A DNA stretch of 64,000 nt from an uncultured Acidobacteriaceae bacterium (GTDB lineage Bacteria; Acidobacteriota; Terriglobia; Bryobacterales; Bryobacteraceae), in NCBI GenBank assembly GCA_963845995.1, contig CAWJUO010000028.1, forward strand, positions 46,405 through 110,404, given 5' to 3'. The translations under genes were made by a program, and so were the position numbers. Of the stretch, positions 1,155 to 23,699 are shown in pieces; within the stretch, counting starts at the first letter, position 1, and each line of letters opens with the position of its first letter. Below the pieces are notes generated by a model. The model was not told the origin of the DNA. It did not search any database and saw nothing but the letters and a program-made list of their open reading frames with translations.

Positions 1155-1162
1155 TTTGAAAT

Positions 1163-1498
1163 CTATTGAACGGCTTCAAGGATCAAACCAACCGCGCCAG
1201 AGAGCCGATGCCAATTAGCCTCCTCCGCAGTCAGCTGCTTACGGCCTTTTACCGACAGCTTGTAGAACTTGGCTTGACGGCTGTTATCGGATTCACCCCA
1301 CGTCGCCTCCAGCCATCCGCGCGCTTCCAGCCGGTGCAGAGCCGGGTAAAGCGAGCCTTGCTGAACGTTTAAAACCTCGTTCGATATCTGGCGAATGCGC
1401 TGCGAAATGGCATATCCGTGGACCGGCCCGAGAGCGACGATCTTCAGGATGAGCATGTCCAACGTGCCCTGCAACAAATCCGAGTTCTCAATAGGCAT
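1163..1498 (-). CDS. PadR family transcriptional regulator
   Basis: 111 aa. 'LLQGTLDMLILKIVALGPVHGYAISQRI...GSLYPALHRLEARGWL' is the classic PadR winged-helix signature. Followed 8 nt later by the permease gene. Confidence 0.93.
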   Translation of the reverse strand: MPIENSDLLQGTLDMLILKIVALGPVHGYAISQRIRQISNEVLNVQQGSLYPALHRLEARGWLEATWGESDNSRQAKFYKLSVKGRKQLTAEEANWHRLSGAVGLILEAVQ

Positions 1499-1511
1499 GT
1501 GACCGTCCCTG

Positions 1512-1583
1512 TGTCAATCTACATATACGGCAACGATGTGTAGATTGTCAAGGGGGAAACGATGTAGACAAAACTTCGTCTAC
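1512..1583. promoter_or_regulatory. Two palindromes in the PadR / small-ORF divergent intergenic region (candidate PadR operators)
   Basis: TGTCAATCTACA (1512-1523) and TGTAGATTGTCA (1539-1550) form an 11/12 inverted repeat. GTAGAC-N8-GTCTAC lies at 1564-1583. Both lie between the PadR start (1498) and the ORF start at 1592. Confidence 0.5.
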
Positions 1584-1591
1584 TGTTCAGC

Positions 1592-1774
1592 ATGAGCCAT
1601 TTACAGAAAGTCTCGTACCTCTTGGGAGCATTGCTCCTGGGCATTTCCGCAGCCTTGGTGTTAGGCACAAATGAAAAAAGCGCCCGCCGCCCCAGGAGAT
1701 CCGAAAGAACGCTCCCGGTGGAGCAACTTACGGAAAACCTGAAGCAGGCGTGGGCGCCTTATCACACACCGTAA
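1592..1774 (+). CDS. Small hypothetical membrane-anchored protein (60 aa)
   Basis: ATG ORF with an N-terminal hydrophobic helix 'VSYLLGALLLGISAALVLG' followed by a basic/charged tail. No clear SD and no family recognised. Confidence 0.4.
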   Translation: MSHLQKVSYLLGALLLGISAALVLGTNEKSARRPRRSERTLPVEQLTENLKQAWAPYHTP

Positions 1775-1780
1775 TTGAAT

Positions 1781-2159
1781 TTACTGCGGAGTTTGTGCCG
1801 TCCCGGAAGAGCCTGCACCCGCAGTGCTGGACGTATCGGTGTTAGTCCCCTTGTGATGGCGTCTGCTCTTCTTGGACGATTTCGAGTTCTGGCTGCCAGT
1901 GTCGCTAGTGCCATTTTGTGCAGATTGACCCGACTGTCCAGCGGATCCAGACTGCCCAGCCGATCCAGATTGTCCGGCCGATGCCAGACTGTCCAGCCGT
2001 TCCCGACTGCCCAGCGGAGCCAGTCTGTCCGGACGGGGCGCTACCCGCACCACCGCCCTGTCCGCCAGCTCCACCCGACCCTGCCTGCACTGGCACCGCG
2101 AAACCAATCATTGGAATCGACACCGCCGTTAAAAGTAGTGAATAGAAAGTGTTCTTCAT
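1781..2159 (-). CDS. Secreted Gly/Ser/Gln-rich repeat protein, reading frame broken inside the repeat
   Basis: Signal peptide 'MKNTFYSLLLTAVSIPMIGFAVPVQA' then (S/T)AGQSG hexapeptide repeats (ORF 1905..2159). The repeats continue in another frame (ORF 1781..2107: SAGQSGSAGQSGSAGQSGQSAQNG...TAQTPQ*). A one-base shift near 1981 joins them. Confidence 0.6.
1931..2038. repeat. Six imperfect tandem 18-nt units encoding (S/T)AGQSG
   Basis: Read directly: cgactgtccagcggatc / cagactgcccagccgatc / cagattgtccggccgatgc / cagactgtccagccgttc / ccgactgcccagcggagc / cagtctgtccggacgggg. Confidence 0.8.
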
Positions 2160-2275
2160 ACTAGGAATGCTTTACCCTCCGCCATTTGGACATGTATCGT
2201 GTGAATTACATTACCTAGGCGTACTACGTGCCGTCCCGCTCGTGAGAGAAAAGTTCTAACCACGAACAAAGGAGC

Positions 2276-5050
2276 GTGAATACTATGACTGCGGATCCAC
2301 TTCTTGCTCTCGAACGTCGAGACTTCCTCAAGCTCGCTGGTGCAATGACGGCGTTCGGCTCCGGTACCACTGCTCAAGGCGTTCTTCGCGGTCGAGTTGC
2401 TATCGTGATCGATGCGAACGATCCGGTCCCCTCCGCCGGTCCCGTGAAGTGGGCTGCCGGACAGCTCCTTCAAGCGCTCTCGGCCAAGGGTTCGCCCTGC
2501 GGCATCTTTCCGTCTCTTGAGTCAGGCCGAGGGTTCTGCGTTCTTCATCCTGGTGGCGAATCCCGCCTCCGATTTGGCCAGAGGGTTCTCCGCGCCCTGT
2601 ACACCCCTCGAAGCGCCCGAAAGCATCCGAATGACTCCTGGGAAGGTCGCGGAATCACCCGCAATCCTGATATCCGGAAGTGATGCCGCGAGGCTTTCTG
2701 TACGGTCTGCTCGAACTAGCTGAGCGCGTTCAGTTCGGAGATAATCCCTCCGCCGCATTGTCCTTGAGCAAGGCCGTCGAGGAGAAATCCGCCAATGAGG
2801 TCAGGAGTGTAGCGCGCGCCTTCTGCAGCGAAATCGAAGATAAGACCTGGTACTACGACAAGAACTTCTGGCGGGGATATTTGGATGTGATCGCCGCAAG
2901 CCGGTTCAATCGATTCAACCTTGCCTTTGGTTTCGGATACGATTTTCCACGCGGCGTCACGGGAGACTACTTCCACTTTGTTTATCCATATCTAGTCGAT
3001 GTTCCCGGCTATAACGTCCGGGTCGTCCGGCTCACCGCCGGCGATGGTCAAACTCCCGGGCCGCTTTCGAACGAAGAAAGAGAGAGAAACTTCGACATTC
3101 TGCGCTTTGTCGCCGCCGAAACCGGCGCTCGCGGCCTTCAATTTCAACTGGGTATTTGGACCCACGCCTATCAATGGACAGATAGCCCTCGCGCCGATCA
3201 TCGAATTGAAGGGCTGACGCCGGAGACTCACGCCGCCTATTGCCGTGATGCTCTAGCGATTATTTTGAAGGCCTGCCCCCAAATTCAAGGACTCACCCTT
3301 CGAGTTCATGGCGAGAGTGGGATTCCTGAAGGGAGCTATCCGTTCTGGAAAACTCTCTTTCAAGCGATCTCCGGCAGCTGGCCGCAAGATCGAAATCGAG
3401 ATGCACTCTAAGGGCGTCAACAGCACCATGATCGACATAGCCGCGGGCACCGGCATGCCAGTGAAATTGGGCGCCAAATACTCAGCGGAGCACCAGAGCC
3501 TTGGCTATAACCAGGCGGATATCCGCGAACTGGAAATACCGCGGCCGAGCCGCATGGAAACCGGCCTCTTTAGCGTCAGCAACGGCGCGCGCCGTTTCAC
3601 GCGCTATGGATACGCCGATTTTTTTCAGGAGGGGAGCCGGTATAAAGTGCTCTTCCGCCTATGGCCCGGAACACAGCGCCATTTGCTCTCGGCCGACCCG
3701 GAGATGGCGGCGGCCTTCGGACGAACATCTAATTTCTGTGGAGCCGCCGGACTGGAACTCTGCGAACCCTTGACCTTCAAAGGCCGTGAAGGTTCGGGGC
3801 TGCCAGGTGGCCGCTGTGCCTACGCGGACGAATCTCTCAACCCCAAGGACGACTGGAGAAAATTCGAATACTACTACAGGGTTTGGGGACGCCTCCTGTA
3901 TAACCCCGGTGCGGATCCGGACACTTGGCGCAGATATCTAAGGAGCGATTTCGGGGCAGGCGCGGACTCGGTGGAAACTGCCGTTGCCAATTCCTCTCGC
4001 GTTCTTCCATTGCTGACCTCGGCCCACCTTTCCTCCGCCTCAAATCACTCCTTTTGGCCCGAGTTATACACCAACATGCCAATCGTGCTGGGCAGCGAAC
4101 CTTCGCCCTATAGCGACACGCCCACGCCTAAATGCTTTGGAACCGTCAGCCCCCTCGATCCGCAGCTATTTTCGACAATCGTCGAGCACGCCGCCGATCT
4201 ACTCGCTGCCCGTTCCAATCCAAAATATTCTCCGGTGGAAGTAGCGCAATGGTTGGACGGCTACACGGCGGCAGCGGCAAAGGCACTATCTGCTGCCCAT
4301 CGTCAGACGAAATCGAACACTTCTCCTGAGTTCCGCCGGATTGAAGAGGATGTCCTCATCCAGAATGGCCTGGGACAATTCTTCGCGGCGAAGTTACGGA
4401 GCGGAGTACTCTTTGAAATCTATCAGCGGACCGGCGATTCCGATGCCGGCAAACTGGCTTTAGAGCAATATCTCAAGGCGCGCGATTCTTGGACAGCTAT
4501 GGCGCGCCGGGCTCAAAATATTTACCGCGCCAACATCTCTTACGGGGATGTCCCGATCCGGCAAGGCCACTGGATAGATCGCGTCTCAAGCATCGAAAAG
4601 GATCTCGACGCCATGAAGGCAGCTTTGCAGCAGAAGCCCGGCGCAGAAGCGGGATCGCAACAAAAAGCGCGGCAGGCGATACAAGCTGTCATGCAACCAA
4701 CCCGGCGTCCTTCTATTCGCTGCAGCCATACGCCGCCTCAGACCTTTCAACCAGGTAGATCGCTTTCTCTGTCGCTCTCCCTAGCTGAGACGAATGGGCA
4801 TGCACTTCCTTCTTCAGTTCTCTTATGTTATCGGCATGTGAACCAGGCGGAGCGCTGGCGTTCTGTCGAAATGCGGTATGCGGACCGCTCTTTCGAATCC
4901 GCTATTGCGGGTGATTACACGAACTCCCCCTTCCCCCTGCAATACTATTTCGAGCTCAGGCGCGGGAATTCCGAAGCGTGGTTCTATCCAGCGTTCAACG
5001 CGGCGTTATCTAACCAGCCTTACTACGCAGTTTTCAAAAGGGAAAAATAG
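2276..5050 (+). pseudogene. Tat-exported large hydrolase-like protein (alpha-glucuronidase/GH-like N-terminal module), split over four frames
   Basis: Twin-arginine signal 'ERRDFLKLAGAMTAFG'. The sense continues across ORFs 2276..2683, 2517..2723, 2680..3411 and 3308..5050: 'SAFFILVANPASD...ILISGSDAA/RGFLYGLLELAERV' and 'FWKTLFQAISG/GRKIEIEMHSKGV'. Shifts lie near 2490-2530, 2688 and 3380. The functional family is only loosely recognised. Confidence 0.6.
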
Positions 5051-5075
5051 AGCCTCCGGATCAGCTCATAAATTT

Positions 5076-5570
5076 TCAATGACCGTTTCCGCACGAAACC
5101 GGTTTGCTTCCCCACGGTGCGCCCAACCTCACCCATTTCGTTAAGGTATCGATATCTTGCACCGGCAGTTTACTTCCGGGAGGCATCGTGACATCTCCAT
5201 CTTGCCGAATCACGTGAATGAGGATGCTTTGTTCAGGCTTCCCGGGGACAATCGTCGCTCCGTTCTTGCGTACTGCGACCAGCCCTTCGCGGTGTAAGAA
5301 TGATACGTTGCCATTCTTCAAGCCATCGTTGTGACACATAATGCAGTGCTCGCATAGAATCGGCTTGACCTCACTTTCGAAAAACCAACTGTGCCGCGGT
5401 TCTTTGCCCTGCGCGTGCATCTGAGCACTGAACGCCACAAGAGCCGCCAGAAATACTCTCGACTTATTGCACCGCGCCGACTGCGAACTGGCTACCCGCC
5501 CGAACAGCTTTGCTGCCGTTAAAGTCAATCTCAAGTAGTTTCTCACTCTGAACCTGTTGCCCGTTCTCAT
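5076..5570 (-). CDS. c-type cytochrome domain protein (planctomycete-type cytochrome c domain)
   Basis: 'KPILCEHCIMCHNDGLKNGNVSF...TMPPG' contains a CxxCH haem motif, preceded by a signal-like 'VFLAALVAFSAQMHA'. The start is uncertain: the only start codon in frame overlaps the upstream gene by ~100 nt. Confidence 0.65.
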   Translation of the reverse strand: MRTGNRFRVRNYLRLTLTAAKLFGRVASSQSARCNKSRVFLAALVAFSAQMHAQGKEPRHSWFFESEVKPILCEHCIMCHNDGLKNGNVSFLHREGLVAVRKNGATIVPGKPEQSILIHVIRQDGDVTMPPGSKLPVQDIDTLTKWVRLGAPWGSKPVSCGNGH

Positions 5571-6594
5571 CTTGTAATGTATTCACAATCTGCCGTGTAC
5601 GCCTGTCGATAATGTCGCCGCTTGATGGAATCACATACCGGCCGTCTATGCTCAGTGTTATCCAACCGGGCATGTCTCTGGTCTTGATGCTCGCGATCTG
5701 TTTAGGTGGCATAACTGTGCTGTCGAAAACATGCACATAGTTATTGGCGCCGTCCGCTAGCCAGAGTTCTTTCTCGTCCGGCGTCAATGCGATTCCGTGA
5801 CTCGGACACCCGTGACGTTTAGTAGGACCTTTTTCGTAGCCTTGAACCTGTACCTTGCAAACTTCTTTCCCGGTTTTTATATCGCCGACCTCGAAGCCGA
5901 GAAGATCGTTTACGTTAACAAAGCACAAAGTGTTACTTCCGTTCACCGTGAATGGGCGTATCACATTTGAGAACGGCCCGACTCGTTGAACCACGCTGCG
6001 CGTTTTCGGATCTGCAACCAGAAGATAGTTGAGGTGGAGACCAGCTAAATAAACGCGGCTCCCATCCGCGGCATAGATCGTATTGTGCGAACCCGAGTTG
6101 GTCTGGACTTTCGCTAGTACGTCTCCGCTTAACGCATCCACCACAGTCCAAAATGGCCCTTCAAAGGAAGGTACGTACAGGATTTTGCCATCTGGTGAGA
6201 TCGCCATCCGGTCACACCCGCCCTCGTAGGTTTTATCCCAAAGCATTTTGTCCGTCGCCAGGTCAAAAGAAGCCAAACGATTTTGCGTGCTTACGTACAA
6301 TCGGCCCGTCTTCGCGCTGGCAACAATGCCTTTGACGTTTTCCGGCTTGCGTCCAGGAACCAGATTCCAAGTTGGGATGCGTTTCACAAACTTGTACTGC
6401 TTATCCATGTCGAAAACAATAATTCCGATGCCCCCGTATTCAAGGTAGTTCCGGATGCCGGGAACGGCTACATACAGTAAGTGCCGGCTCGTGCCGTTAG
6501 CGCCATCCGCGCGCGCCGGCATCGAAATACAACCGCAGACAATCAGAACTGCGCACACTCTTACAATCCGGGAATAGAAATAATTGAGTTCCAT
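5464..6594 (-). CDS. Secreted beta-propeller repeat protein (YncE/YVTN-like)
   Basis: 376 aa with a signal peptide 'VCAVLIVCGCISMPARA'. Repeated 'DG..LYV', 'ISPDGKILYV' and 'LTPDEKELWLAD' blades. Confidence 0.7.
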   Translation of the reverse strand: MELNYFYSRIVRVCAVLIVCGCISMPARADGANGTSRHLLYVAVPGIRNYLEYGGIGIIVFDMDKQYKFVKRIPTWNLVPGRKPENVKGIVASAKTGRLYVSTQNRLASFDLATDKMLWDKTYEGGCDRMAISPDGKILYVPSFEGPFWTVVDALSGDVLAKVQTNSGSHNTIYAADGSRVYLAGLHLNYLLVADPKTRSVVQRVGPFSNVIRPFTVNGSNTLCFVNVNDLLGFEVGDIKTGKEVCKVQVQGYEKGPTKRHGCPSHGIALTPDEKELWLADGANNYVHVFDSTVMPPKQIASIKTRDMPGWITLSIDGRYVIPSSGDIIDRRTRQIVNTLQDENGQQVQSEKLLEIDFNGSKAVRAGSQFAVGAVQ

Positions 6595-6618
6595 AACTTT
6601 CTCGCGATTTGCTCTTCC

Positions 6619-6888
6619 TTACATCGCTGCAGCAGCGCTAGTGAAAGTGCCCTCCGCGGAGCTGCCAATTTGCAAATCCCGTGAGATTCTACTTTCGTAC
6701 GTCCGCGAACCCATGACATAGCAGCCGATCGTCCTGAGAAACCGTGTCATCATTTCGGGATCCATACCCTTCCCGTCATCGAACGTGTCAGTGGTTTCGA
6801 GCCAGTCCACACTTCCGTCTCTTCGAGCAATGAAGCCGTCCAGGCTGGCTACCATGTGGATGGTTACGCGAGACTCTGCTTCCTGCAT
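6619..6888 (-). pseudogene. Truncated dihydrofolate-reductase-like (RibD C-terminal family) remnant
   Basis: 'VTIHMVASLDGFIARRDGSVDWL...CYVMGSRTYE' matches the first ~65 aa of the family, then diverges and stops. The next gene starts 25 nt downstream, so there is no room for the missing ~110 aa. Confidence 0.5.
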
Positions 6889-7015
6889 ACGGCAACCCGG
6901 GAGGACATTGGCATTGCTCCAGTGTAAACGTCACCCATTGTAAAAAATGTTTGACACGCATCCCCTAAGATGCTATCTTCCCTATGTCAAATATTTTTTA
7001 CACGGAGCCGCCCCC

Positions 7016-7444
7016 ATGACTACAAGCCTTTCCTACCGCGAAAAAACTCTCTACGCCTCGCTTGCGGCGGAACTCGTCGTGTACTGCCCTTACTTCTTCC
7101 TGCACCAGCAAAACTCCGTCAACAAGGTGGCAGGCATGATTGTCGCCATCATCGTGCTGCAAATAATCCTGCAGTCGATCATTGCCGCACTGACTCGGAA
7201 CCGTGTAACGGATGAGCGCGACAGGTTGATCGAGCTACGAGGCTATCGCGCCGGTTATCTGGTGCTCGCCTCACTCATGGTAATCGGGCTGGGCATGTTG
7301 TGGTTTCACGCGACCGTCGGCCACCTTCGATTGGACAGCCGGATCATAGGACTTCATTTCTTGAACGTCTTTTTCGGCATGTTGGTCATCGCGGATATAA
7401 CGAAGACCGTCACGCAGATCGTGGCTTACCGGAAGACGCTCTGA
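7016..7444 (+). CDS. DUF2178-like four-TM membrane protein
   Basis: ATG 7016 with GGAG 8 nt upstream. A hydrophobic four-helix protein whose stop overlaps the start of the XRE gene (TGATG), the usual DUF2178/HTH pairing. Confidence 0.7.
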   Translation: MTTSLSYREKTLYASLAAELVVYCPYFFLHQQNSVNKVAGMIVAIIVLQIILQSIIAALTRNRVTDERDRLIELRGYRAGYLVLASLMVIGLGMLWFHATVGHLRLDSRIIGLHFLNVFFGMLVIADITKTVTQIVAYRKTL

Positions 7445-8089
7445 TGCCCGCCATACGCAATCGGATTCGAGAACTCCGGGCCCTCCGCGAGATGACCCAA
7501 CAGGAACTCGCCGATCGAGTCGGCGTCACCCGGCAGACAGTCATAGCCATCGAACAAGACAAGTATTCGCCTTCCCTCGAGACTGCGTTCAAAGTGGCAA
7601 TCGTGCTGGGTGTGCCCCTTGACCAGTGTTTCCAGTACGACCCACGCGGTAAGCGCTGAAAAAACGAACCCAACCCAATTCGTTTGGCAAAATCAACTCG
7701 GGGGTGGCGCGGACGGTCTTGCCGTCTGCGCCTGCCTGCGAGCTGCCACATAAAGATCAGCAGCACAAATTACACTACAAAACAACTTTTGAGCGTTCTT
7801 TCCGGCGGTCCCTCCGTAACATCGAGCAGTTCGGTCACGCCGCTCCGCGAAGCACAAGCCGCCGAGCGCCTCGTCCCGCTACGCTTCACAAAAACGGCCT
7901 CGACTACAAACCATTTATGGCGTGGGCCTGCCAGGCCAATTGATACTGGCTTACGACGATCGGCCTCGGATCTGCGCCCATCCCGCCGTGCTCGCGCCTA
8001 TCCATAAACGTCAGATTTTAGCGCTGATGTTGGAACCTGAAATCGATCTACCTGCGCGGCTTTTGATAACGCGCGTCAGGCGCGTGACC
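7436..8089 (+). repeat. Left copy of a direct duplication: intact XRE gene plus a collapsed, decayed copy of the two genes found intact at 14522-15972
   Basis: Manual alignment gives three blocks. 7436-7745 matches 14119-14415 with about 15 substitutions and 4-5 single-base indels. 7740-7915 matches 14831-15045. 7916-8089 matches 15511-15778. About 415 and 465 nt are missing between blocks, plus a further ~100 nt inside block 3. Confidence 0.85.
7444..7659 (+). CDS. XRE-family helix-turn-helix transcriptional regulator (71 aa)
   Basis: 'IRELRALREMTQQELADRVGVTRQTVIAIEQDKYSPSLETAFKVAIVLGVPLDQCFQY' is a typical short Cro/C1 HTH. Confidence 0.9.
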   Translation: MPAIRNRIRELRALREMTQQELADRVGVTRQTVIAIEQDKYSPSLETAFKVAIVLGVPLDQCFQYDPRGKR

Positions 8090-8165
8090 GTTGGCTCCTC
8101 TTTTTCAGAATCCTGCCAGAGAGCATTATGCCGAATTTGCTACAAGGTAAAATACAGAGGAACGC

Positions 8166-8351
8166 ATGCCTGATTTCGAAGAAATTATTCCCGATATTCC
8201 CGGTTCCGATCCGGTTGGGAAACAACCCGAGAAGGCGTCTTCCCTTCCGGTCTGGCATAAGCCCGAGCTTTCGCGCATTTCCATCGCGGCTTCCTCCGGG
8301 CCTCACACCCGCGCGGAAACGGGTGACGATGCCGGTATCTTTGTCTCTTGA
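8166..8351 (+). CDS. Candidate RiPP (lasso-type) precursor peptide, 61 aa
   Basis: SD AGAGGAA at 8156-8162. The TGA overlaps the next ORF. It contains the 'WHKPEL' aromatic-xxPxL leader-like motif, has an acidic core and ends in Ser. It sits immediately 5' of PqqD and the B2 peptidase. Confidence 0.55.
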   Translation: MPDFEEIIPDIPGSDPVGKQPEKASSLPVWHKPELSRISIAASSGPHTRAETGDDAGIFVS

Positions 8352-8371
8352 TTTGCGGAAACGGTGCCGGA

Positions 8372-8653
8372 ATGTCTGTGAACTCGCAATCGATTGTGAA
8401 GAGAACGCCTGGCCTGATGAGCACGCGGGTAGAGAACGACACTTACATTTTGAATCCCATGCGGGATCAATATACCGGCCTGGACGAAATCGGACGCCGC
8501 ATCTGGGATTTGCTCGAAGCGCCAAGCCGGGTGGATCGCCTCTGCGATCAGGTCTTGCACGAGTATCAGGGAGATGCGCAACAGATTGCGAGTGAGCTTT
8601 TCGAGTTCCTGAACGAACTGGAGACTGAGGGTTTACTGGAAGTCGGTAAATAG
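8372..8653 (+). CDS. PqqD-family peptide chaperone (RiPP recognition element, lasso B1-type)
   Basis: 93 aa. 'RTPGLMSTRVENDTYILNPMRDQYTGLDEIGRRIWDLLEAPSRVDRLCDQVLHEYQGD...FLNELETEGLL' is the canonical PqqD pattern. An alternative TTG start lies at 8348. Confidence 0.85.
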   Translation: MSVNSQSIVKRTPGLMSTRVENDTYILNPMRDQYTGLDEIGRRIWDLLEAPSRVDRLCDQVLHEYQGDAQQIASELFEFLNELETEGLLEVGK

Positions 8654-8674
8654 CGTAGCCGCGGAATTCTCAAA

Positions 8675-9178
8675 TTGCGAAAACCCGATTTCTCCAAGCT
8701 TCGGGGGCAAAGCGGCGCGGACCTGCGGTTGCTCGTCGAAGCGTTCTTCTGGCTGGCTCTGGCTCGCTTCGCCCTACTGGTTATGCCCTTCCGCTGGACT
8801 GCAACTCTACTGGCTCTTCAGCCCGGCGACGGCACCGTCCGGGAGTATCCTTTCCGCGGTCTGCATACAGAAGCTTTTGTGCGCCGTGCAAGCCGGGCTT
8901 TAACGCTTGCCGCTGCCCGCACTCCCTGGAAAAGCAACTGCGCCGCGAAAGCTGTAGCGGGTGCCGGAATGCTGCGCTGTCGGAAGATCCCCGCCACCGT
9001 GGCGCTCGGTGTAAATACCCCGCTGCGCCCGGTGGCAGCGCACGCATGGTTGTCGGCCGGCGGAATCGTCGTCACGGGAGCGCCAGTGCATAAGAAGTAC
9101 CGCGTCATTGCAACATTCGCTTACAACCCAAAGTGTCCCGGCTCGTCGAAATGTACCACTACTCAGCCTTTTCTCTAA
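8675..9178 (+). CDS. Lasso-peptide B2-type transglutaminase-fold cysteine peptidase
   Basis: 'LLVEAFFWLALARFALLVMPF' N-terminal helix, 'PWKSNCAAKAVAGAGMLRCRKIPATVALGV' (catalytic Cys context) and 'AAHAWLSAGGIVVTG' (His context). TTG start. The 3' end overlaps the kinase gene. Confidence 0.75.
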   Translation: MRKPDFSKLRGQSGADLRLLVEAFFWLALARFALLVMPFRWTATLLALQPGDGTVREYPFRGLHTEAFVRRASRALTLAAARTPWKSNCAAKAVAGAGMLRCRKIPATVALGVNTPLRPVAAHAWLSAGGIVVTGAPVHKKYRVIATFAYNPKCPGSSKCTTTQPFL

Positions 9179-10020
9179 ACATCGATTCTGAGGTGGAGTT
9201 GCCCGAACTTCCGCGCGGCTCTGGCGTTCCGGACGTGGCAATCCGCCTCGGCACGGTAAGCAGAACCGAAACGCCGGCCCGGATTGACGAAGAAAGAGCC
9301 TTTCCGCGGAATGTCGGAGGATTCCACATCAGGGGCGGCCGCGAGATCGTCGTCGATCTGCTTCCCCACGCTGAAATGGGAGTCGTGCGAACCCTGCTCG
9401 CGGGCAGGTTTATGGGCTATCTCCTGCGCCAGCGCGGCTGCCTGCCTCTTCATGCGAGCGCTGTCGCCATAAACGGACAAGCTGTGCTCTTCCTTGGCGA
9501 AAGCGGAGCGGGAAAATCGACTACCGCGGCCGCCTTTTATCGCCGCGGCCACAAAGTGCTGGCGGACGATGTTGCGGCCGTGCGTCCAGCGAACTCCGGC
9601 CTGGAGTTACAGCCCGCATGGCCTGGGCTTCGTCTCCTGCAAAATAGCCTCGATGCAATCGGCGCAGAAACCCCGCCTTCGGATTTCTGTGACGAAAAGC
9701 ACGTGTACCGATTGAAAAGCCCCGTCCTGGCCGGGCCGTTACCCGTGAAAAGGATGTACTTTCTGGATTATCACCCTTCCGGCGGCTCGTTAGCCGTCCG
9801 TTCCTCGGCCCTCTCCGGACTGTCTGTTGTCGCGCTTCTAAATGCCCACTCGCTGCTCAGAAGTTGGCGCGCGGATCATGCGCTTCGGCAAATAAATCTG
9901 GATCGCGCAGCCGCGGTGGGAACCGCTGGCCACGTCCGCCGGCTAACCCGGGCCCGGTCTTTGGATCTCTTGCCCCGCCTGGTTGATTTTGTCGAAGCGG
10001 ATGTGATGGCCGATGACTGA
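9151..10020 (+). CDS. HPr-kinase-related serine kinase (HprK-related kinase A / lasso precursor kinase type)
   Basis: 'MYHYSAFSLNIDSEVELPELP' N-terminus and 'LHASAVAINGQAVLFLGESGAGKSTTAAAF' P-loop, as in the HPrK C-terminal domain. The ORF track start at 9133 is an upstream GTG. Confidence 0.8.
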   Translation: MYHYSAFSLNIDSEVELPELPRGSGVPDVAIRLGTVSRTETPARIDEERAFPRNVGGFHIRGGREIVVDLLPHAEMGVVRTLLAGRFMGYLLRQRGCLPLHASAVAINGQAVLFLGESGAGKSTTAAAFYRRGHKVLADDVAAVRPANSGLELQPAWPGLRLLQNSLDAIGAETPPSDFCDEKHVYRLKSPVLAGPLPVKRMYFLDYHPSGGSLAVRSSALSGLSVVALLNAHSLLRSWRADHALRQINLDRAAAVGTAGHVRRLTRARSLDLLPRLVDFVEADVMADD

Positions 10021-11149
10021 ATGCCTGTCCCGGCTGTTGGCTCCTATGAGCACAGACTTGTTCCTGAAGCACTACCAGGCAAGAGAACATTTCTACGTCG
10101 CCAGATCGTGTCCTGGTTACTACGCCGATTTGCTCAGCGTCGGTGATATCGACACGGTTCTGCAATCCAGCCAATTGCCGGCTGCCGTGCTCAATGTAGT
10201 GAAAGGTGGCGTGCGATGTCCGCTCGAAGATTGGTCCCGTTTCGTATCCTCTTCGAGGGGTCCGCTTCAGATCGCCGTTCCAGAGAAGCTTCTAAGCTTG
10301 TATGCCGATGGCGCCACTCTTATCCTGAATCAGGCCCATGCAGTGCTGCCGGCGCTCACCGAAACCACCCGGATGTTAACGCTGGAGCTAGGCTTCCCGA
10401 CGCAGACGAACATCTATATAACGCCCCGTGATTCGACTGGCTTCAGCAAGCATTCAGACGAGCACGACGTGCTGATCCTGCAGATAGCCGGCAGCAAATC
10501 TTGGAGAGTATACCCGGCCGATACCAGCCAAGCTGAATTCGACCTGAAATCCGGAGAGCTTCTGTATATTCCGCGCGGAATGTTTCACGATGCCCGATCG
10601 CGCGATGAAGACTCGATCCATATCACGCTCGGTTTAAGGCCGCCATACGGTTTTGAACTGATCCGGGACCTTGCCGCTCTGGCAGCTGAACGCGTAAGTT
10701 TTCAGAGGCCTGCACCACCACGTTTCGCGGGCGCTGAAGCGATGGCGCTATTCGAGGCCGATCTACTGGCGGACTTACAGGCCTTCGTCGGCGAACTAAG
10801 GCCCTCGAACCTCACCATCCTCCGCCAGGGCTTGCTGACACAGCAGGCTGAGACTTGGCCCGGCCGGTTCGCCGACCTTCGCGTTCTTAGCCGGATGACT
10901 CCGGATACCGTCGTGTGCCGGCGTCCCGAAATTCCGGCTGCGATCAAAGAGGACGGAAAGTTTCTGCACGTTGCCTTCGGCGGTAGACAAGTGACGATAC
11001 CAATTTTCATGCGTGAGCAGCTTGCGCGAATTTTCGGAGACGGAGATTTCGCGATCCGCGAAATTGAGGGAATGATCACCAGTTCGGGCAAGATAAAACT
11101 CGTTGCGGAATTCGTGAGAGCCGGCTTCCATCGGATCGTCAAAATCTGA
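10013..11149 (+). CDS. JmjC/cupin-4 family Fe(II)/2-oxoglutarate-dependent oxygenase
   Basis: 378 aa. 'GFSKHSDEHDVLILQIAGSKSWRVY' (HxD facial-triad context) and 'LYIPRGMFHDARS...SIHITLG' (distal His). Overlaps the kinase stop by 8 nt. Confidence 0.75.
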   Translation: MTECLSRLLAPMSTDLFLKHYQAREHFYVARSCPGYYADLLSVGDIDTVLQSSQLPAAVLNVVKGGVRCPLEDWSRFVSSSRGPLQIAVPEKLLSLYADGATLILNQAHAVLPALTETTRMLTLELGFPTQTNIYITPRDSTGFSKHSDEHDVLILQIAGSKSWRVYPADTSQAEFDLKSGELLYIPRGMFHDARSRDEDSIHITLGLRPPYGFELIRDLAALAAERVSFQRPAPPRFAGAEAMALFEADLLADLQAFVGELRPSNLTILRQGLLTQQAETWPGRFADLRVLSRMTPDTVVCRRPEIPAAIKEDGKFLHVAFGGRQVTIPIFMREQLARIFGDGDFAIREIEGMITSSGKIKLVAEFVRAGFHRIVKI

Positions 11150-12119
11150 TTTTCCGTGAGCTCAACTCTGAGTACAGCGCCAGAAGTTCAGGCTGCACCG
11201 CGGGTTCAGAATCGATCGGCGCAGCAGGATGGGATGAGCGGAGGTGATTCGACTTTGCGTCCCACCGGAACTCGGCCCGCATCAACTCCAAATCACCGGG
11301 GGATGGATCAAGCTGGAAAAAATCCAGAATAGCCGGCAGCTTCTGTGGGGTCAAATCCTCGTAATCCAGACATTTCAAACTCTCGCCGGCGCGGAGGGCC
11401 TGCTGGAAGAAGTCGGCGATTGCCCTTTCAGCCGAATGCCAGATTGTCCCAATACCGGTATCCCTACCCATCCATCCCGGCATGGCGCGCCGGTAGGATG
11501 CGAGGATCTCCGCCGGGCGCCGGAAGAGGAACAAAGCGGGAACCTCCGGAAAGGCGGTCCGGACAATTTCAAACTGCGCAATAGTGAACGAAGTGAACTT
11601 CACAATGTGTGCCCGGTACGATTGCAGACGCGGTCTGCCGGTGTGTAAAAGCAGGTTCCGAAAAAGCGTCACCGCCGGATCGCACCCGGCCGCGATGACG
11701 GGCCAGATGTCGTTATGGGGACCACCTTCGCCAAACACCATATGCTCTTGGGAACAGGCAATTACTTTCGCGAGCAGCGTCGATCCGCAACGGCCCGCAT
11801 GGAATATGAAGCCCGTGGGACCCAGGCAGTCGGAGGCGTCGGGGGCTGAGCGCAGAAAATCAAGAGAGGAAATACATCGCCACGGTTCCGACGGTCTGGG
11901 CGCACCTGCCCGGAGCGCCGCATAAGTGGCAAGCGAGCGGCGGAAAGAACCGTCGTGGCAGTGGTACTGGTTCAGGTCCAGCCACAAAGCGGTGCGCTGA
12001 AATGCGTCGAGTTCAATGGGAATAAGGCCGCCCCTCGCCGAATGTTCGGCTCGAAATTGGTCTTCGGTTAGTCTCAAGTTCCTTTCGGGGTACTTCGTCA
12101 TAATCATCGCTCTCCCCAT
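11139..12119 (-). CDS. Sulfotransferase-family protein
   Basis: 'GFIFHAGRCGSTLLAKV' resembles the PAPS 5'-phosphosulfate-binding loop (PxxGSTxL). The size and position match sulfotransferases seen in kinase-type lasso clusters. Converges on and overlaps the JmjC gene by 11 nt. Confidence 0.6.
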   Translation of the reverse strand: MGRAMIMTKYPERNLRLTEDQFRAEHSARGGLIPIELDAFQRTALWLDLNQYHCHDGSFRRSLATYAALRAGAPRPSEPWRCISSLDFLRSAPDASDCLGPTGFIFHAGRCGSTLLAKVIACSQEHMVFGEGGPHNDIWPVIAAGCDPAVTLFRNLLLHTGRPRLQSYRAHIVKFTSFTIAQFEIVRTAFPEVPALFLFRRPAEILASYRRAMPGWMGRDTGIGTIWHSAERAIADFFQQALRAGESLKCLDYEDLTPQKLPAILDFFQLDPSPGDLELMRAEFRWDAKSNHLRSSHPAAPIDSEPAVQPELLALYSELSSRKIRF

Positions 12120-13384
12120 AAAACGTGACGGTTGAATAAGCCGGCCGCACGCGCAACCGGCATGCCGAGCAGCAGGACCGGATGACGGTACAGAGCCTGG
12201 TTATCTTCAAACAGCCAGAAGCTCAACCGATAAGCAAGCCGGTTCAACAACGAATATCTGGTCTCGAAGTTTGCCAGATACCGGAGCTGCGCCCATCCCT
12301 CGCTGACGGATCGTTTACGGCAGATATCAGGCGCGCTCATCTCGGCCACCGCATACTCCGCCAGAGCGCCAGCCTGCGGCTCTTTCTTCACGAGCCGGGC
12401 AGCGTGCTCGTCAGGTTCCATACCGAACAGAAGTTGCAGCAGGAGAATCGTCTGAGCCGATGCCAGTTCCAGCCCCAAGACGGCGGAAGTTGCTTCAGAA
12501 GCATGCCAGAACTCAGGCTGGCGGTCGACGATCGCCGCCAGATCGCCCAGCCACTTCAACCGGCTCCAGCCATGGATTGCGCCATGCAGGCACAGGTGCA
12601 GGCTGTCGGCATGTGTCAGTCCCGATCGCTCCTCAGCCCAATACGACCACCACTTTGCATCCAGATCCCTGCTGCGCGCCTGTTCGATTCGCCAGTGCAG
12701 TTCAAGACTGACTTTCTTCTCCTCGTGAAAGAAATGCAGATGCCGAAGACGGAGTTCGGTAAAGCGTCGATACATTCCGCCTCTCAGCCACATGTCCGCA
12801 TTCCGAGGCTGCCAGCCGCCCGCCCGCAGAACATCTACTGCGGAAGCAATCTGCTCCGGCTTTATCGCCAGATCCAGGTCCTTACTGTGGCGCAAAGACA
12901 CATCCCCATAAATCCTTTGCGAGAGCATGGGACCCTTGAAAAAGTGATACGCGATTCCGGCACTGGACAGCGCTGAGGAAATCCCCATCAATGCGGAGAC
13001 TAGCCGAAGATTCATCAGCCGTACCTCGCGAGCGCGGCGTTGCAGCGGAGCCTCGAAATCGCCCAGAACATGCTGCATGCCGTGTTCACGCAGAACACGT
13101 TCCGCCAATGCAAAAATGCGATGCCGCTGAATACCCGTCCACAGGCCTTCCGGACTCTGCCCCGCTCGCAATGCCGCTTCGAGTTGACGTTTTTGCCGGG
13201 TAAACCCGTCCGGACCTGCCGGAATGTAGGAACACGCGGCAAGGAAGCGCAACCTCGGATCGATCGTCATCGGCTTTTTGATCGTGTATCTCGCTTCTGC
13301 ATTCGCTTCTTTAGGAGAGTGCCGCAATCGGGCAAACATTCTAAAGATTTCCCGGCGAGCAGATCCGCTCGTTCTGGCGATCAT
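12104..13384 (-). CDS. Nucleotidyltransferase family protein (NTP_transf_5-like)
   Basis: 'FFKGPMLSQRIYGDVSLRHSKDLDLAIKPEQIASAVDVLRAGGW' is a G-x-motif plus DxD of the uncharacterised nucleotidyltransferase family. Overlaps the sulfotransferase start by 16 nt. The true start may be an internal Met. Confidence 0.7.
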   Translation of the reverse strand: MIARTSGSARREIFRMFARLRHSPKEANAEARYTIKKPMTIDPRLRFLAACSYIPAGPDGFTRQKRQLEAALRAGQSPEGLWTGIQRHRIFALAERVLREHGMQHVLGDFEAPLQRRAREVRLMNLRLVSALMGISSALSSAGIAYHFFKGPMLSQRIYGDVSLRHSKDLDLAIKPEQIASAVDVLRAGGWQPRNADMWLRGGMYRRFTELRLRHLHFFHEEKKVSLELHWRIEQARSRDLDAKWWSYWAEERSGLTHADSLHLCLHGAIHGWSRLKWLGDLAAIVDRQPEFWHASEATSAVLGLELASAQTILLLQLLFGMEPDEHAARLVKKEPQAGALAEYAVAEMSAPDICRKRSVSEGWAQLRYLANFETRYSLLNRLAYRLSFWLFEDNQALYRHPVLLLGMPVARAAGLFNRHVLWGER

Positions 13385-13484
13385 GGGCTTATCGGAAACC
13401 GGCTAAAACTGTGCCTGCTCTCGGCTGTGCTCGTCCCCCCGCCGAAATCTGCAAAAACGCTAGGATGAGAGGAGGGCTGTCGCA

Positions 13485-13751
13485 ATGACTTCAACTCTTG
13501 ATTGGTCCCAATGTCCTGCCGTGGAGAGCATCCCTGGCAAAGTCAGCGGCGCATGGGTGTTTAAAGATACCCGCATGCCGGTTGCTACCGTGTTCGAGAA
13601 TTTGGAAGCTGGCTTGACCGTGGAAGAGGTCATGGAAGAATTCTCCGTTACACGCGAACAAATCAACGCTGTGTTGCATTTCGCCGCTCGGAGCTTGGGA
13701 ACGCCCATCCCGCCCCCGGCGCATGCTGCCGCCGATGCTCATTCTCTTTGA
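13485..13751 (+). CDS. DUF433 domain protein (antitoxin-like)
   Basis: 'IPGKVSGAWVFKDTRMPVATVFENLEAGLTVEEVMEEF' is the typical DUF433 core. Strong SD GAGGAGGG upstream. Confidence 0.8.
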   Translation: MTSTLDWSQCPAVESIPGKVSGAWVFKDTRMPVATVFENLEAGLTVEEVMEEFSVTREQINAVLHFAARSLGTPIPPPAHAAADAHSL

Positions 13752-14060
13752 CCACGGCACACCCCGCAGCATTGCCCGCTGGCTTCAGGGTCACAACGTT
13801 GTGGAAGCGATAGCAAGAGGCTGGGTCAGATTAAGAAACGGCGCATTGCTGAAGGCTGCAGAGGAAGCCGGGTTTGATCTTTTACTATCGACCGATAAAA
13901 ACATCCAGTATCAGCAAAACCTCAAAGGCGTCGTATTGCCATCGTGATACTTGGCAACCCGCAACGGCCAGCAGTGCACCGTTACATTGATAGAGTTGTC
14001 GCAGCAGTGAACGCGGCAACACCCGGCAGTTTTGCTGAAGTGGAAATTCCTTATGAATAG
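13735..14060 (+). CDS. DUF5615 (PIN-like) protein, one-base frameshift
   Basis: 'MLILFDHGTPRSIARWL...LLLSTDKNIQYQQNLKG' then, after a missing base at GG 13927-13928, 'RRIAIVILGNPQRPAVHRYIDRVVAAVNAATPGSFAEVEIPYE*'. Overlaps the DUF433 stop. Confidence 0.7.
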
Positions 14061-14125
14061 TCCGTGCGTCTTGGGCTGGGACGGTATCGGCCGCAGCGCC
14101 CTCGAAGTGTCAATTTACCGCTCCG

Positions 14126-14339
14126 ATGCCGCCATACGCAATCGGATTCGAGAACTCCGGCTCTCCGCGAGATGACCCAACAGGAACTCGCCGAATCGGG
14201 TCGGCGTCACCCGGCAGACGGTCTAGCCATCGAACAAGACAAGTATTCGCCTTCCCTCGAGACTGCGTTCAAAGTCGCAATCGTGCTGGGTTGGCCCCTT
14301 CGCCAGTGTTTCCAGTACGACCCTCGCGGTAAGCGCTGA
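14126..14339 (+). pseudogene. Decayed duplicate of the XRE regulator gene at 7444-7659
   Basis: Same ATG context and C-terminus ('AIEQDKYSPSLETAFKVAIVLGWPLRQCFQYDPRGKR'), but several indels break the frame in the HTH region. Confidence 0.8.
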
Positions 14340-14521
14340 AAAAACGAACCCAACCGAATTCGTTTGGCAAAATCAACTCGGGGGTGGCATGGACGCTCTT
14401 GCCGTCTGCGTCTGCCATGGCGATGACAAATTTCAAAAAACCTCGATCTCCCCCAGATCCAAACACTTACACCTTTTCCCGCCGCCCCCCGCGAACGCCG
14501 CTAATTCATACTCGCGGACAA

Positions 14522-15058
14522 ATGAGCAATACTCCACCGCGAAAACCCGGCCCCAACACAATTGCTGGAAAAGCGAATTCCAGCAAAAATTCCACTAAAC
14601 ACAGTTTGCGAAGCAACCCGGATAACCTCCTTCCCGGCGAAACAGAAGAAGACTACAACGCCATCTGGGACATCTGGGCCGCCGAATACGATTCCGCCAG
14701 CCCCGCCACCGAGCGTCTGATCGAATTCATAGTGAACGACGACCGTCTCGTACGCTTCTCCGTAGCCGCCGTCATCAACGCGCAAATCGCTCTCGCCAAA
14801 GCCGAAATGTTAGGCGATCAAACCCAAATCGAGCTGCTACATAAGGATCTGCAGAACAAATTCCGCTACAAAACAAGCTTTGAGCGTTCTTTCCAGCGGT
14901 CCCTCCGCAACATCGAGCAGTTCGGCCAGCGCCGCGTCCGCGAAGCACAAGCCGCTCTGCGCCTGGTTATCCTTGAAAATAAAGCCGCTTGCCTCGTGGC
15001 AGCTCACACTTCACAAAAACGGCCTCGACTACAAAACAGTTCTCCCCTTGTCAACTGA
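14522..15058 (+). CDS. Hypothetical protein (conserved N-terminal 'GKANSSKNSTKHSL' motif family)
   Basis: ATG 14522. 'RKPGPNTIAGKANSSKNSTKHSLRS' resembles a widespread uncharacterised family, followed by a helical region. The ORF track start at 14384 lies inside the duplicated intergenic sequence. Confidence 0.55.
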   Translation: MSNTPPRKPGPNTIAGKANSSKNSTKHSLRSNPDNLLPGETEEDYNAIWDIWAAEYDSASPATERLIEFIVNDDRLVRFSVAAVINAQIALAKAEMLGDQTQIELLHKDLQNKFRYKTSFERSFQRSLRNIEQFGQRRVREAQAALRLVILENKAACLVAAHTSQKRPRLQNSSPLVN

Positions 15059-15153: not shown

Positions 15154-15972
15154 GTGCGGCGCTTGCTGGATGCTCTGAAGAATGAGCGCTCGGAAGTTTC
15201 ACTGGATATCGCGTCTCTTGAGCTAGCCAGTATCGAATTTCCCCGGTTGGACTTTGAAGCGTCCCTATTCCGGCTCCAAAACATAGCGGAGCAGATTAAG
15301 TCTCAGCTGACGGAAGACGCGACGCCCCTCGAGTTCATCAAGGGTCTTAATGAATTGCTGTTCGACACCTTGCAGTTTCGCGGCAATGACGAAGACTATT
15401 ACGATCCGCGGAATAGCTGTCTGAACTCTGTATTAAGCCGTCGCGTCGGAATTCCGATCACGCTTTCAGTAATCTACATAGAGGTTGCCCGGAGGCTCGG
15501 TCGTCCCGTATATGGTGTCGGCCTTCCCGGCCACTTCATCGTCGCTTACGACGATGGCAACTCGTGTTACTGGATAGACCCGTTCCATGCCGGGCGGCTG
15601 CTGTCCTTTGCCGATTGCGCCGCGCTTGCAAAGGAAACGTCGGGAGTCGATCTGCGCGCGAATCCCGCCGTCCTCGCGCCTGTCCATAAACGGCAGATTC
15701 TCGTCCGGATGTTGAGCAACTTGAAAGCGATCTACTTGCGCGGTCAAGCTTTCGATAAAGCGCGCCAGGTGCTTGACTTGCTCATTGAAGCCATGCCCGA
15801 GTACGCGGAGGAGTACCGGCATCGTGGCTTGATTCACCTTCGGCAGATGAATCATCGCGCGGCCAAATCGGATTTGGAGGCTTATCTAAGATTGGAGCCG
15901 AACGCGCCTGAGCGCGAACAGGTGCAGAAACAACTTCTGCTGATTGAGCGTTGGAAGGCCGGACTTAACTGA
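15154..15972 (+). CDS. SirB1-like transglutaminase-fold + TPR protein
   Basis: 'NSCLNSVLSRRVGIPITLSVIYIEVARRLGRPVYGVGLPGHFIV' followed by a TPR-like C-terminus 'EYRHRGLIHLRQMNHRAAKSDLEAYLRLEPNA'. Confidence 0.8.
   Translation: MRRLLDALKNERSEVSLDIASLELASIEFPRLDFEASLFRLQNIAEQIKSQLTEDATPLEFIKGLNELLFDTLQFRGNDEDYYDPRNSCLNSVLSRRVGIPITLSVIYIEVARRLGRPVYGVGLPGHFIVAYDDGNSCYWIDPFHAGRLLSFADCAALAKETSGVDLRANPAVLAPVHKRQILVRMLSNLKAIYLRGQAFDKARQVLDLLIEAMPEYAEEYRHRGLIHLRQMNHRAAKSDLEAYLRLEPNAPEREQVQKQLLLIERWKAGLN

Positions 15973-22072: not shown

Positions 22073-22080
<8 letters not shown>
21430..22080 (-). CDS. ctaE: Cytochrome c oxidase subunit III
   Basis: 216 aa. '[20 protein letters not shown]', '[12 protein letters not shown]' and '[13 protein letters not shown]' are canonical subunit III motifs. 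Confidence 0.93.

Positions 22081-23699
<1,619 letters not shown>

Follow-up and report, generated by a model that had tools for sequence, protein, structure and literature searches.

Lasso B1 and B2 proteins and HprK-like kinases are usually regarded as accessories of the lasso cyclase, and genome-mining rules such as those of RODEO and antiSMASH demand this cyclase, so that cassettes without it go unseen or are filed as broken. In described lasso pathways, B1 binds the leader of the precursor and presents the precursor to the B2 peptidase (PMC5067487). Discrete RiPP recognition elements (RREs; RiPP, ribosomally synthesized peptide with post-translational modifications) of the lasso type bind a leader motif of the form [Y/W]xxPx[L/V/I/A/F/Y] (PMC13381572), and residues other than Thr (Ile or Val) occur naturally at position -2 of the cleavage site (PMC10368454). 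HprK-like kinases, whose lasso-associated members carry the motif H..G..G.GKS..DD (PMC10368454), take the linear precursor as substrate, phosphorylating its C-terminal Ser, and reject the threaded lasso (PMC8498205, PMC10368454). Fe/2-oxoglutarate (2OG) hydroxylases also act on linear lasso precursors (PMC8498205), and the PF14907-type homologue PsmN is described there as adding a hexose to the phosphoserine of pseudomycoidin. According to RRE-Finder, about half of the discrete lasso-RRE matches stand without a peptidase and a cyclase, and the cyclase-less clusters of linear polyphosphorylated peptides (LPPs) are confined to Bacillota according to their authors (PMC13381572). Here we describe a cyclase-less cassette in a stretch of 64,000 nucleotides (hereafter the window) of contig CAWJUO010000028.1 from an uncultured Acidobacteriaceae bacterium, and in particular the small open reading frame (ORF) at its head, which lies directly 5' of a gene of the PqqD family.

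The reading that we favor, with a probability of roughly 0.55, is that this ORF is the translated precursor of a lasso-derived RiPP cassette minus its cyclase and a second RRE, and that its product would be linear and phosphorylated at the C terminus. Judged by its sequence and that of its relatives, the ORF is a genuine RiPP precursor gene. It translates as MPDFEEIIPDIPGSDPVGKQPEKASSLPVWHKPELSRISIAASSGPHTRAETGDDAGIFVS, and the reading frame and Shine-Dalgarno-like sequence pointed out in the initial annotation of the window both match the sequence and the translation exactly (Table 1). Sites of the GGAGG type stand 5' of the orthologous peptide genes of L165, L168, L082, L169, and L171, and weaker ribosome-binding sites (RBSs) lie ahead of those of L001, L161, and L002. 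The PqqD reading frame has a TTG (8348-8350), overlapped by the stop codon of the precursor, that had been taken as the first possible start of the PqqD gene. The overlap exists, but ATG 8372 is the likelier start because it is the one called in the orthologues, giving proteins of 92-93 residues, and it leaves a 20-nt spacer after the precursor.

Taken alone, the pattern of leader motif and terminal Ser is weak evidence for a gene. The motif at the right distance to the stop, together with a terminal Ser, is found in 2 of the 1164 stop-to-stop segments of 30-130 amino acids in the window, and the pattern is expected about once per 64 kb. Because of this, the case for the ORF rests on its conservation and its position beside PqqD. 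The exact peptide is a called protein (P0001) in an NCBI assembly, an 85%-identical peptide lies in the same gene context on a JGI contig, and relatives have been called in JGI, ENA, and Logan assemblies. Scans for promoters and terminators returned no more sites than in shuffled sequence, and an Rfam scan of positions 6000-15000 gave no match.

To avoid circularity, loci were fetched with the kinase and not the peptide as query, which yielded 79 genome loci and at least 80 metagenome loci, with more added by exact-protein look-up. Every close relative with enough sequence has a homologous small ORF 5-22 nt 5' of PqqD; loci with the peptide ORF in this place are L001, L002, L004, L161-L168, L174, L175, and the contig of P0164, and the named relatives belong to Bryobacteraceae, Solibacteraceae, and Terriglobia. 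A profile search combined with an exhaustive hidden Markov model search brought the peptide family to 47 non-redundant members, 20 of which are of the window's cyclase-less type (Type I) and 27 of a cyclase-linked type (Type II). The initial annotation had proposed aligning the small ORFs upstream of orthologous PqqD genes. In such an alignment of 19 family sequences (A4) the ORF proves to be conserved, with W30, H31, P33, S36, R37, I38, I40, A41, D54, and S61 invariant. The ratio of nonsynonymous to synonymous substitution rates (dN/dS) of the precursor is 0.17-0.57 in most pairs (0.23 between the window and L002), and frame and motif are retained at dS > 1. One metagenome protein of 156 residues, P0163, contains two tandem precursor-like units, with leader motif and core present twice. 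Possible explanations are a fusion of two precursors or the calling of two neighboring precursor genes as a single ORF.

The leader of the window peptide, WHKPELSRISIAASS, contains the sequence WHKPEL (residues 30-35, nt 8253-8270). As had been recognized, this meets the lasso leader motif given above, and its W, H, and P do not vary among the 19 homologues. The initial annotation had further pointed to a Gly 12 residues after the Pro, to a Ser at -2, and to the same spacing in paeninodin. We set the start of the core by anchoring on the invariant leader, 12 residues after Pro33, which places Gly45 at +1, and homology supports this register. Position -2 always lies 10 residues past the Pro and is Ser or Thr in 46 of the 47 peptides (all 20 of Type I; in Type II, Thr in 26 of 27), and +1 is Gly in 10 of 11 peptides when the window is taken with its closest Type I relatives. 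The spacing of 12 is likewise present in paeninodin-like precursors that lie beside cyclases in Firmicutes (L027, L038, L046) and in all Type II peptides.

That no cyclase is nearby had also been observed, and searches across the whole window agree: jackhmmer with four cyclases verified by Pfam/NCBIfam, tblastn (all E > 0.1), and Pfam searches of the large ORFs detected no Asn_synthase-type cyclase. Relatives lack it as well: L005 has none in its 10-kb flanks to both sides, L175 none in the 10 kb upstream, L165 none in the 5.8 kb upstream or the 4.8 kb downstream of its cassette, and L161 none at its locus. One ORF of cyclase-like size in the window (3308-5050, plus strand, 580 aa) has no Pfam match at E <= 0.001 and is not an Asn_synthase homologue.

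The Type II peptides (...WH[RK]PVISRIEIAQTL/X..., where the slash marks the cut) show where the cassette is likely to come from. In L082, L169, L170, L171, and one further contig without DNA, they directly precede a lasso cyclase of the Asn_synthase type, whose TTG start is overlapped by the stop codon of the precursor. Four independent contigs have the order PqqD-A-cyclase-PqqD-B2-kinase(-JmjC), where A is the precursor gene, whereas the Type I order, including that of the window, is A-PqqD-B2-kinase-JmjC. Of the two PqqD proteins of Type II, the one encoded beside B2 is orthologous to the window PqqD (52-60% identity). The other PqqD/RRE of Type II, which precedes the precursor (L082 2-286, L169 2106-2387, L171 642-935), is divergent, with 23-26% identity to the window PqqD, and is missing wherever the cyclase is missing. 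The upstream paralogue was thus lost along with the cyclase, a pattern hinting at an RRE dedicated to that enzyme. A neighbor-joining tree built from the kinases groups the cyclase-less cassettes into a single clade, with the cyclase-containing L081-L083 as its sister, and in remoter kinase loci from Terriglobia, haloarchaea, cyanobacteria, and Firmicutes the cyclase mostly adjoins precursor or kinase. Parsimony favors a single loss of the cyclase in the lineage of the window.

Two further proposals about this loss were rejected. The spacer tttgcggaaac of the window matches the spacer between cyclase stop and PqqD in L171 at 9 of 11 positions, as a deletion scar might, but in the MAFFT alignment the two are offset by 9 nt. 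Replacement of the cyclase by the JmjC, sulfotransferase-like, or nucleotidyltransferase (NTP-transferase) protein was also considered and turned down as the main reading; the first two coexist with a cyclase in Type II, and the third is absent from the cassettes of a subgroup of Type I (Ib, see below).

Cassettes of the order PqqD-B2-HprK-like kinase-NTP_transf_5 were also seen in Dyadobacter (L043, L047, L048, L051, L057, L058, L062, L067, L069, L074, L077, L078, L080), at about 9270-12050 of each locus and with 10-kb flanks that contain no cyclase. The small ORFs before PqqD in these loci were discarded as precursors because they translate the 3' part of a 514-aa gene out of frame, and no recognisable precursor was found there. 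These cassettes may be another cyclase-less lineage, in Bacteroidota.

The predicted core of the window peptide, GPHTRAETGDDAGIFVS, has 17 residues and a linear monoisotopic mass of 1728.807 Da, to which one phosphate would add 79.966 Da. In the initial annotation its Glu51 was offered as evidence of a ring-compatible spacing, and the peptide was called lasso-competent. Ancestry from lasso precursors is borne out by the data above, but the ring argument is not, and the likely product belongs to a lineage without cyclase in which the ring acid seems unconstrained. An acid at core positions 7-9 is present in 6 of the 20 Type I peptides, against a fraction of 0.36 expected from composition, and in all 27 Type II peptides (p = 1e-7 in a Fisher test that counts related sequences as independent), where it is nearly always Asp8 or Asp9. 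The earlier argument was also easier to satisfy because it allowed three alternative N termini. Glu51 is retained only in the shallow subgroup Ia, which consists of four near-identical peptides, that of the window and its three nearest relatives. Subgroup Ib has Lys or Arg at core position 7 (DGGxPRL[KR]P...DD..S), with the same enzymes under the same selection. The acid of Type I is thus at chance frequency, the ring constraint seems to be gone in the cyclase-less clade, and Glu51 of the window is either a leftover or a coincidence.

Type I cores have a different hallmark, a DD motif, which is present in 18 of 20 Type I and 3 of 27 Type II peptides (p = 7e-8, same test). MAFFT aligns D54 with the ring Asp of Type II; in the window, the DD at core positions 10-11 is too distant from the N terminus for a ring of 7-9 members. 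The terminal Ser, which had been singled out as the residue targeted by HprK-like lasso kinases, is invariant in A4, and this suggestion holds up in the wider comparison: in an unfiltered count of precursors beside cyclases in kinase loci, 15 end in Ser and 3 in Thr, with 7 being noise. Kinase-linked precursors end as a rule in Ser or Thr.

From these sequence comparisons we infer the biochemical steps, and the linearity of the product, as follows. By homology, PqqD/B1 would bind the W30-x-x-P33-x-L35 motif of the leader. By analogy with lasso-associated kinases, the HprK-like kinase would phosphorylate Ser61, perhaps repeatedly, while the precursor is still linear. More speculatively, the NTP_transf_5 enzyme might decorate the phosphate on Ser61, and the JmjC enzyme might hydroxylate a side chain of the core, the DD motif or the Arg and His residues being candidates. 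The Ser or Thr at -2, together with the Type II alignment, suggests that B1 and B2 would cut between Ser44 and Gly45. With no cyclase to act on it, the core would stay linear, and the product would be a leaderless 17-mer with a phosphate and possibly a hydroxyl group or a sugar.

A wider claim, which we put forward tentatively and rate a little short of even odds, is that the Type I cassettes (A-B1-B2-kinase-JmjC-sulfotransferase-like, with or without the NTP-transferase) form a distinct Acidobacterial RiPP family whose origin, separate from that of the LPPs of Bacillota, was the loss of the cyclase from a lasso pathway. B1 and B2 would serve here as a leader-removal module only, and the targets of tailoring would be the [ST][TA]DD[FI] motif and the C terminus of a linear peptide, by phosphorylation, JmjC hydroxylation, and possibly sulfation or glycosylation. 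A bolder version would have one of the tailoring enzymes form a crosslink of another kind than that of a lasso; since Type II has these enzymes alongside a cyclase, we disfavor it.

Several observations weigh against the reading as a linear phosphopeptide. Subgroup Ia, with Gly1 and Glu7, keeps a legitimate geometry for a seven-residue ring, and the Fisher tests that separate the two types carry no phylogenetic correction. The search for a cyclase extended over 64 kb in this genome and over no more than about 20 kb in each relative. In the wider set, the terminal Ser is present in 14 of 20 Type I peptides, the others ending in Val, Ala, or Thr, so that C-terminal phosphorylation may not be the defining modification. 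The cassette has no exporter, the nearest transporters in the window being MacB/FtsX permeases at 18.6-21.1 kb, and in L005, from a Bryobacterales metagenome-assembled genome, B2 is truncated after the catalytic Cys.

In a rival reading, the ORF would encode a true lasso precursor served by a cyclase elsewhere in the genome, in a split cluster, with a seven-residue ring between Gly45 and Glu51 and a paeninodin-like C-terminal phosphate. We regard this as unlikely. In its favor, the window peptide and its three closest relatives have retained the Gly at +1 and the Glu at core position 7, conservation is higher in their ring segment GPHxRAE than in the tail, both B1 and B2 are intact, and the family descends from cyclase-linked precursors. 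Yet a maintained ring does not agree with acids at chance frequency across the clade, nor with the Lys or Arg of subgroup Ib, whose enzymes and selection are the same. A remote cyclase would also be out of keeping with the other kinase-type lasso loci fetched, since in all those resolved clearly enough for a judgment the cyclase adjoins precursor or kinase; the second RRE that accompanies the Type II cyclase is gone too, and neither the 64 kb studied here nor the 10-kb flanks of relatives contain a cyclase.

More improbable again is that the cassette is an evolutionary relic, its genes and small ORF unused since the loss of the cyclase and heading to decay. The missing defining enzyme, the lack of an exporter, and the weak RBSs in L001, L161, and L002 would suit such a fate, and so would L005, where, in addition to the truncated B2, a related peptide gene (...LPIWHRPQISRLALARTSRLRPHIHLNDHAFTQDDGGPST, Thr-terminated) is displaced to between B2 and kinase (8868-9900); this arrangement reflects either real decay or rearrangement, or indel errors of long reads. 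The closest precursor pair has a dN/dS of 1.4, a value based on only 21 changes, and fast evolution is customary for RiPP cores. Against a relic stands the fact that PqqD, B2, kinase, and JmjC have dN/dS values of 0.12-0.32 inside the cyclase-less clade, even at dS > 1, and thus after the loss, with catalytic residues intact: the cassette enzymes are under purifying selection and are not decaying. Leader and DD motifs are invariant or nearly so, and the Ib cores are conserved among themselves (DGGxPRLKP...DD..S). Moreover, the cassette occurs in unrelated genomic contexts, beside HTH (helix-turn-helix) and UDG/radical-SAM genes in subgroup Ia, beside PIN, HSP20, and TonB receptor genes in Ib, and beside an exopolysaccharide locus in L175. 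Such diversity of settings is suggestive of a self-contained unit that was transferred and retained.

A chance open frame in GC-rich DNA, with the real substrate of PqqD, B2, and kinase elsewhere, can be set aside as highly improbable, for although the window is rich in stop-to-stop segments and two other long ORFs overlap the precursor (8128-8595, plus strand; 8076-8525, minus strand), these two have no Pfam match, the position, frame, start, and motif of the precursor are conserved among relatives with saturated synonymous sites, and the precursor is homologous to cyclase-adjacent ones.

Table 1. Precursor gene, its sequence elements, and the neighboring genes, in coordinates of the 64-kb window.
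Feature	Position	Strand	Remarks
Xre-type HTH gene	7447-7659	+	PF01381 7e-18; syntenic in L161-L164, absent from Ib loci
Shine-Dalgarno-like AGAGGAA	8156-8162	+	3 nt 5' of the precursor ATG; read from the sequence
Precursor peptide gene (A)	8166-8351	+	ATG start, 61 aa; stop TGA 8349-8351
Leader, residues 1-44	8166-8297	+	Part of precursor A
Leader recognition motif WHKPELSRISI, residues 30-40	8253-8285	+	W30, H31, P33, S36, R37, I38, I40 invariant
Predicted B2 cleavage site, Ser43-Ser44/Gly45	8292-8300	+	Ser at -2, Gly at +1; homology with Type II ...AQTL/X
Core, residues 45-61	8298-8348	+	Part of precursor A
Glu51, core position 7	8316-8318	+	Ring-forming candidate of the initial annotation; not conserved outside subgroup Ia
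Asp54-Asp55, core positions 10-11	8325-8330	+	DD motif, hallmark of Type I cores; D54 invariant
C-terminal Ser61	8346-8348	+	Predicted phospho-acceptor of the HprK-like kinase; invariant in A4
B1/PqqD-family RRE, 93 aa	8372-8653	+	PF05402 8.5e-14; best NCBIfam match lasso_PqqD_Bac; dN/dS 0.12-0.24
Lasso B2 leader peptidase, transglutaminase-like cysteine protease	8675-9178	+	NF033537 lasso_biosyn_B2, 80 bits (cut-off 33); PF13471; dN/dS 0.20-0.31
HprK-like peptide kinase, 289 aa	9151-10020	+	PF07475; dN/dS 0.14-0.26
JmjC_2/ribosomal-oxygenase-type Fe(II)/2OG oxygenase, putative peptide hydroxylase	10013-11149	+	PF08007 7.8e-22; dN/dS 0.16-0.32
Sulfotransferase-like protein, putative	11139-12119	-	Weak PF13469 match, below cut-off; in Type I and Type II cassettes
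NTP_transf_5 nucleotidyltransferase	12104-13384	-	PF14907 3.4e-42; in subgroup Ia (window, L161), absent from Ib cassettes

The enzymes encoded after the precursor retain the residues expected of their families. The catalytic residues of B2, the Cys of W[KR]SNC and the His of AHAW, are kept in the clade, and the lasso-kinase motif is invariant in alignment A1 (H101, G116, G119, G121, K122, S123, D139, D140). The nearest solved structures to the JmjC protein are the His/Arg hydroxylases NO66, MINA53, and YcfD, and its translation contains HxD...H. Orthologues of the sulfotransferase-like protein are found in L002, L003, L005, L082, L161, L165, L167, and L168; the protein has no sequence relative in the PDB, and an AlphaFold2 (AF2) model made from the single sequence was unusable (pLDDT 35). 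No signal-peptidase domain was detected in the cassette ORFs scanned. The Xre-type HTH gene may be a regulator, and its membership of the cassette is uncertain.

In L175 (positions 1-12116, Logan SRR23479354), a Type I peptide-PqqD-B2-kinase group lies directly 3' of an exopolysaccharide locus, with Wzy, several glycosyltransferases, WecG, and Bac_transf, and of an NTP_transf_5 gene. This context echoes the association with capsule loci that has been reported for LPP and paeninodin clusters (PMC13381572).

A 208-nt direct repeat, 91% identical, flanks the whole cassette of the window (7544-7751 and 14224-14431). The 3' half of the HTH gene falls within its left copy, and a degraded HTH fragment (14064-14339) harbors the right one. 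The stretch of about 1 kb that precedes the right copy (insert 13276-14337) is absent from the syntenic L161, and within it a DUF433 ORF (13485-13751) overlaps a 74-aa ORF (13723-13947) in the manner of a toxin-antitoxin pair. Repeat and insert may be a trace of recombination or mobility. Farther downstream, a frameshift near 16791-16807 breaks the UDG/DUF4130 gene beside a radical-SAM gene (15965-17312, minus strand) into two overlapping ORFs. L161 has this gene in one piece, with 449 aa, and the split form is either a pseudogene or an assembly error. A COX1-like gene (22073-23699, minus strand) is likewise divided into overlapping ORFs (22149-23699 and 22073-23095), with a Pfam COX1 match over the first 159 of 436 profile positions, and this may be another assembly frameshift.

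The clade amounts to a natural experiment in which the tailoring half of a lasso pathway persists alone while the ring acid drifts. It would constitute a second, phylogenetically independent origin of linear phospho-lasso relatives, the first having been reported in 2026 from Bacillota. The sister Types I and II are suited to asking what the lasso fold contributes to the function of phosphorylated peptides, and the system also provides a B1/B2 pair with a possible role in releasing linear peptides, together with a putative peptide oxygenase of the JmjC type. Our literature search found no description of a cyclase-less Acidobacterial cassette, no report of ribosomal-oxygenase-type JmjC hydroxylation in RiPPs, and no characterisation of the Type II clusters.

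Among known systems, the paeninodin type (PadeA/PadeK, ThcoK, SyanK; Zhu et al. 2016, as presented in PMC8498205 and PMC5067487) shares with the window the WxxPxL leader with Pro 12 residues before the core, the split B1 and B2, an HprK-like kinase acting on a linear precursor, and a precursor ending in Ser, kinase action being predicted in our case. Compared with the paeninodin type as these accounts present it, the window lacks a cyclase and an ABC exporter, has Ser for Thr at -2, carries added JmjC and sulfotransferase-like genes, comes from Acidobacteriota and not from Bacillota or Proteobacteria, and belongs to a clade in which the ring acid seems unconstrained. With its defining cyclase absent, the cassette is not filed as a lasso cluster. 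Pseudomycoidin (PsmK and PsmN; Zyubko et al. 2019, as summarized in PMC8498205) has in common with the window the pairing of a kinase with a PF14907-type nucleotidyltransferase, but it is described as a threaded lasso made by a cyclase, and that summary names no JmjC or sulfotransferase-like genes. In the Bsf lasso system (BsfK/BsfB1/BsfB2; PMC10368454), B1 assists both kinase and peptidase and non-Thr residues at -2 are tolerated; unlike the window, Bsf has a cyclase, and BsfK targets Ser3. For canucin, the Fe/2OG hydroxylase CanE tailors the linear precursor in the presence of a cyclase, and in the account available (PMC8498205) CanE is not of the JmjC_2/ribosomal-oxygenase type.

Closest by descent are the Type II clusters (L082, L169-L171), which have orthologous A, B1, B2, kinase, JmjC, and sulfotransferase-like genes, a WH[KR]PxxSRIxI leader, and the same cleavage register; they differ from Type I, and so from the window, in having the cyclase, the second RRE, Thr at -2, the acid at position 8 or 9 (Asp8/9), and only rarely the DD motif. 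Closest in the presumed nature of the product are the LPPs of Bacillota (Popov et al., Nat Commun 2026, PMC13381572), which share the RRE, the HprK-like kinase, the NTP-transferase, the absence of a cyclase, a presumably linear product, a [Y/W]xxP leader, and kinship to phosphorylated lasso clusters. The LPP clusters have a signal peptidase of the SpI type (SipW-like) and no B2, whereas the window has the lasso B2 cysteine protease. Their leader reads YxxPxVLxHQxIxFETxxS and their phosphorylated residue is core Ser3, whereas the window has a different leader and His at core position 3, and they encode an MsbA-like exporter, of which the window cassette has none. Set beside the LPPs, the clade of the window would represent an independent loss of the cyclase in an Acidobacterial lasso lineage, with JmjC and sulfotransferase-like genes in addition.

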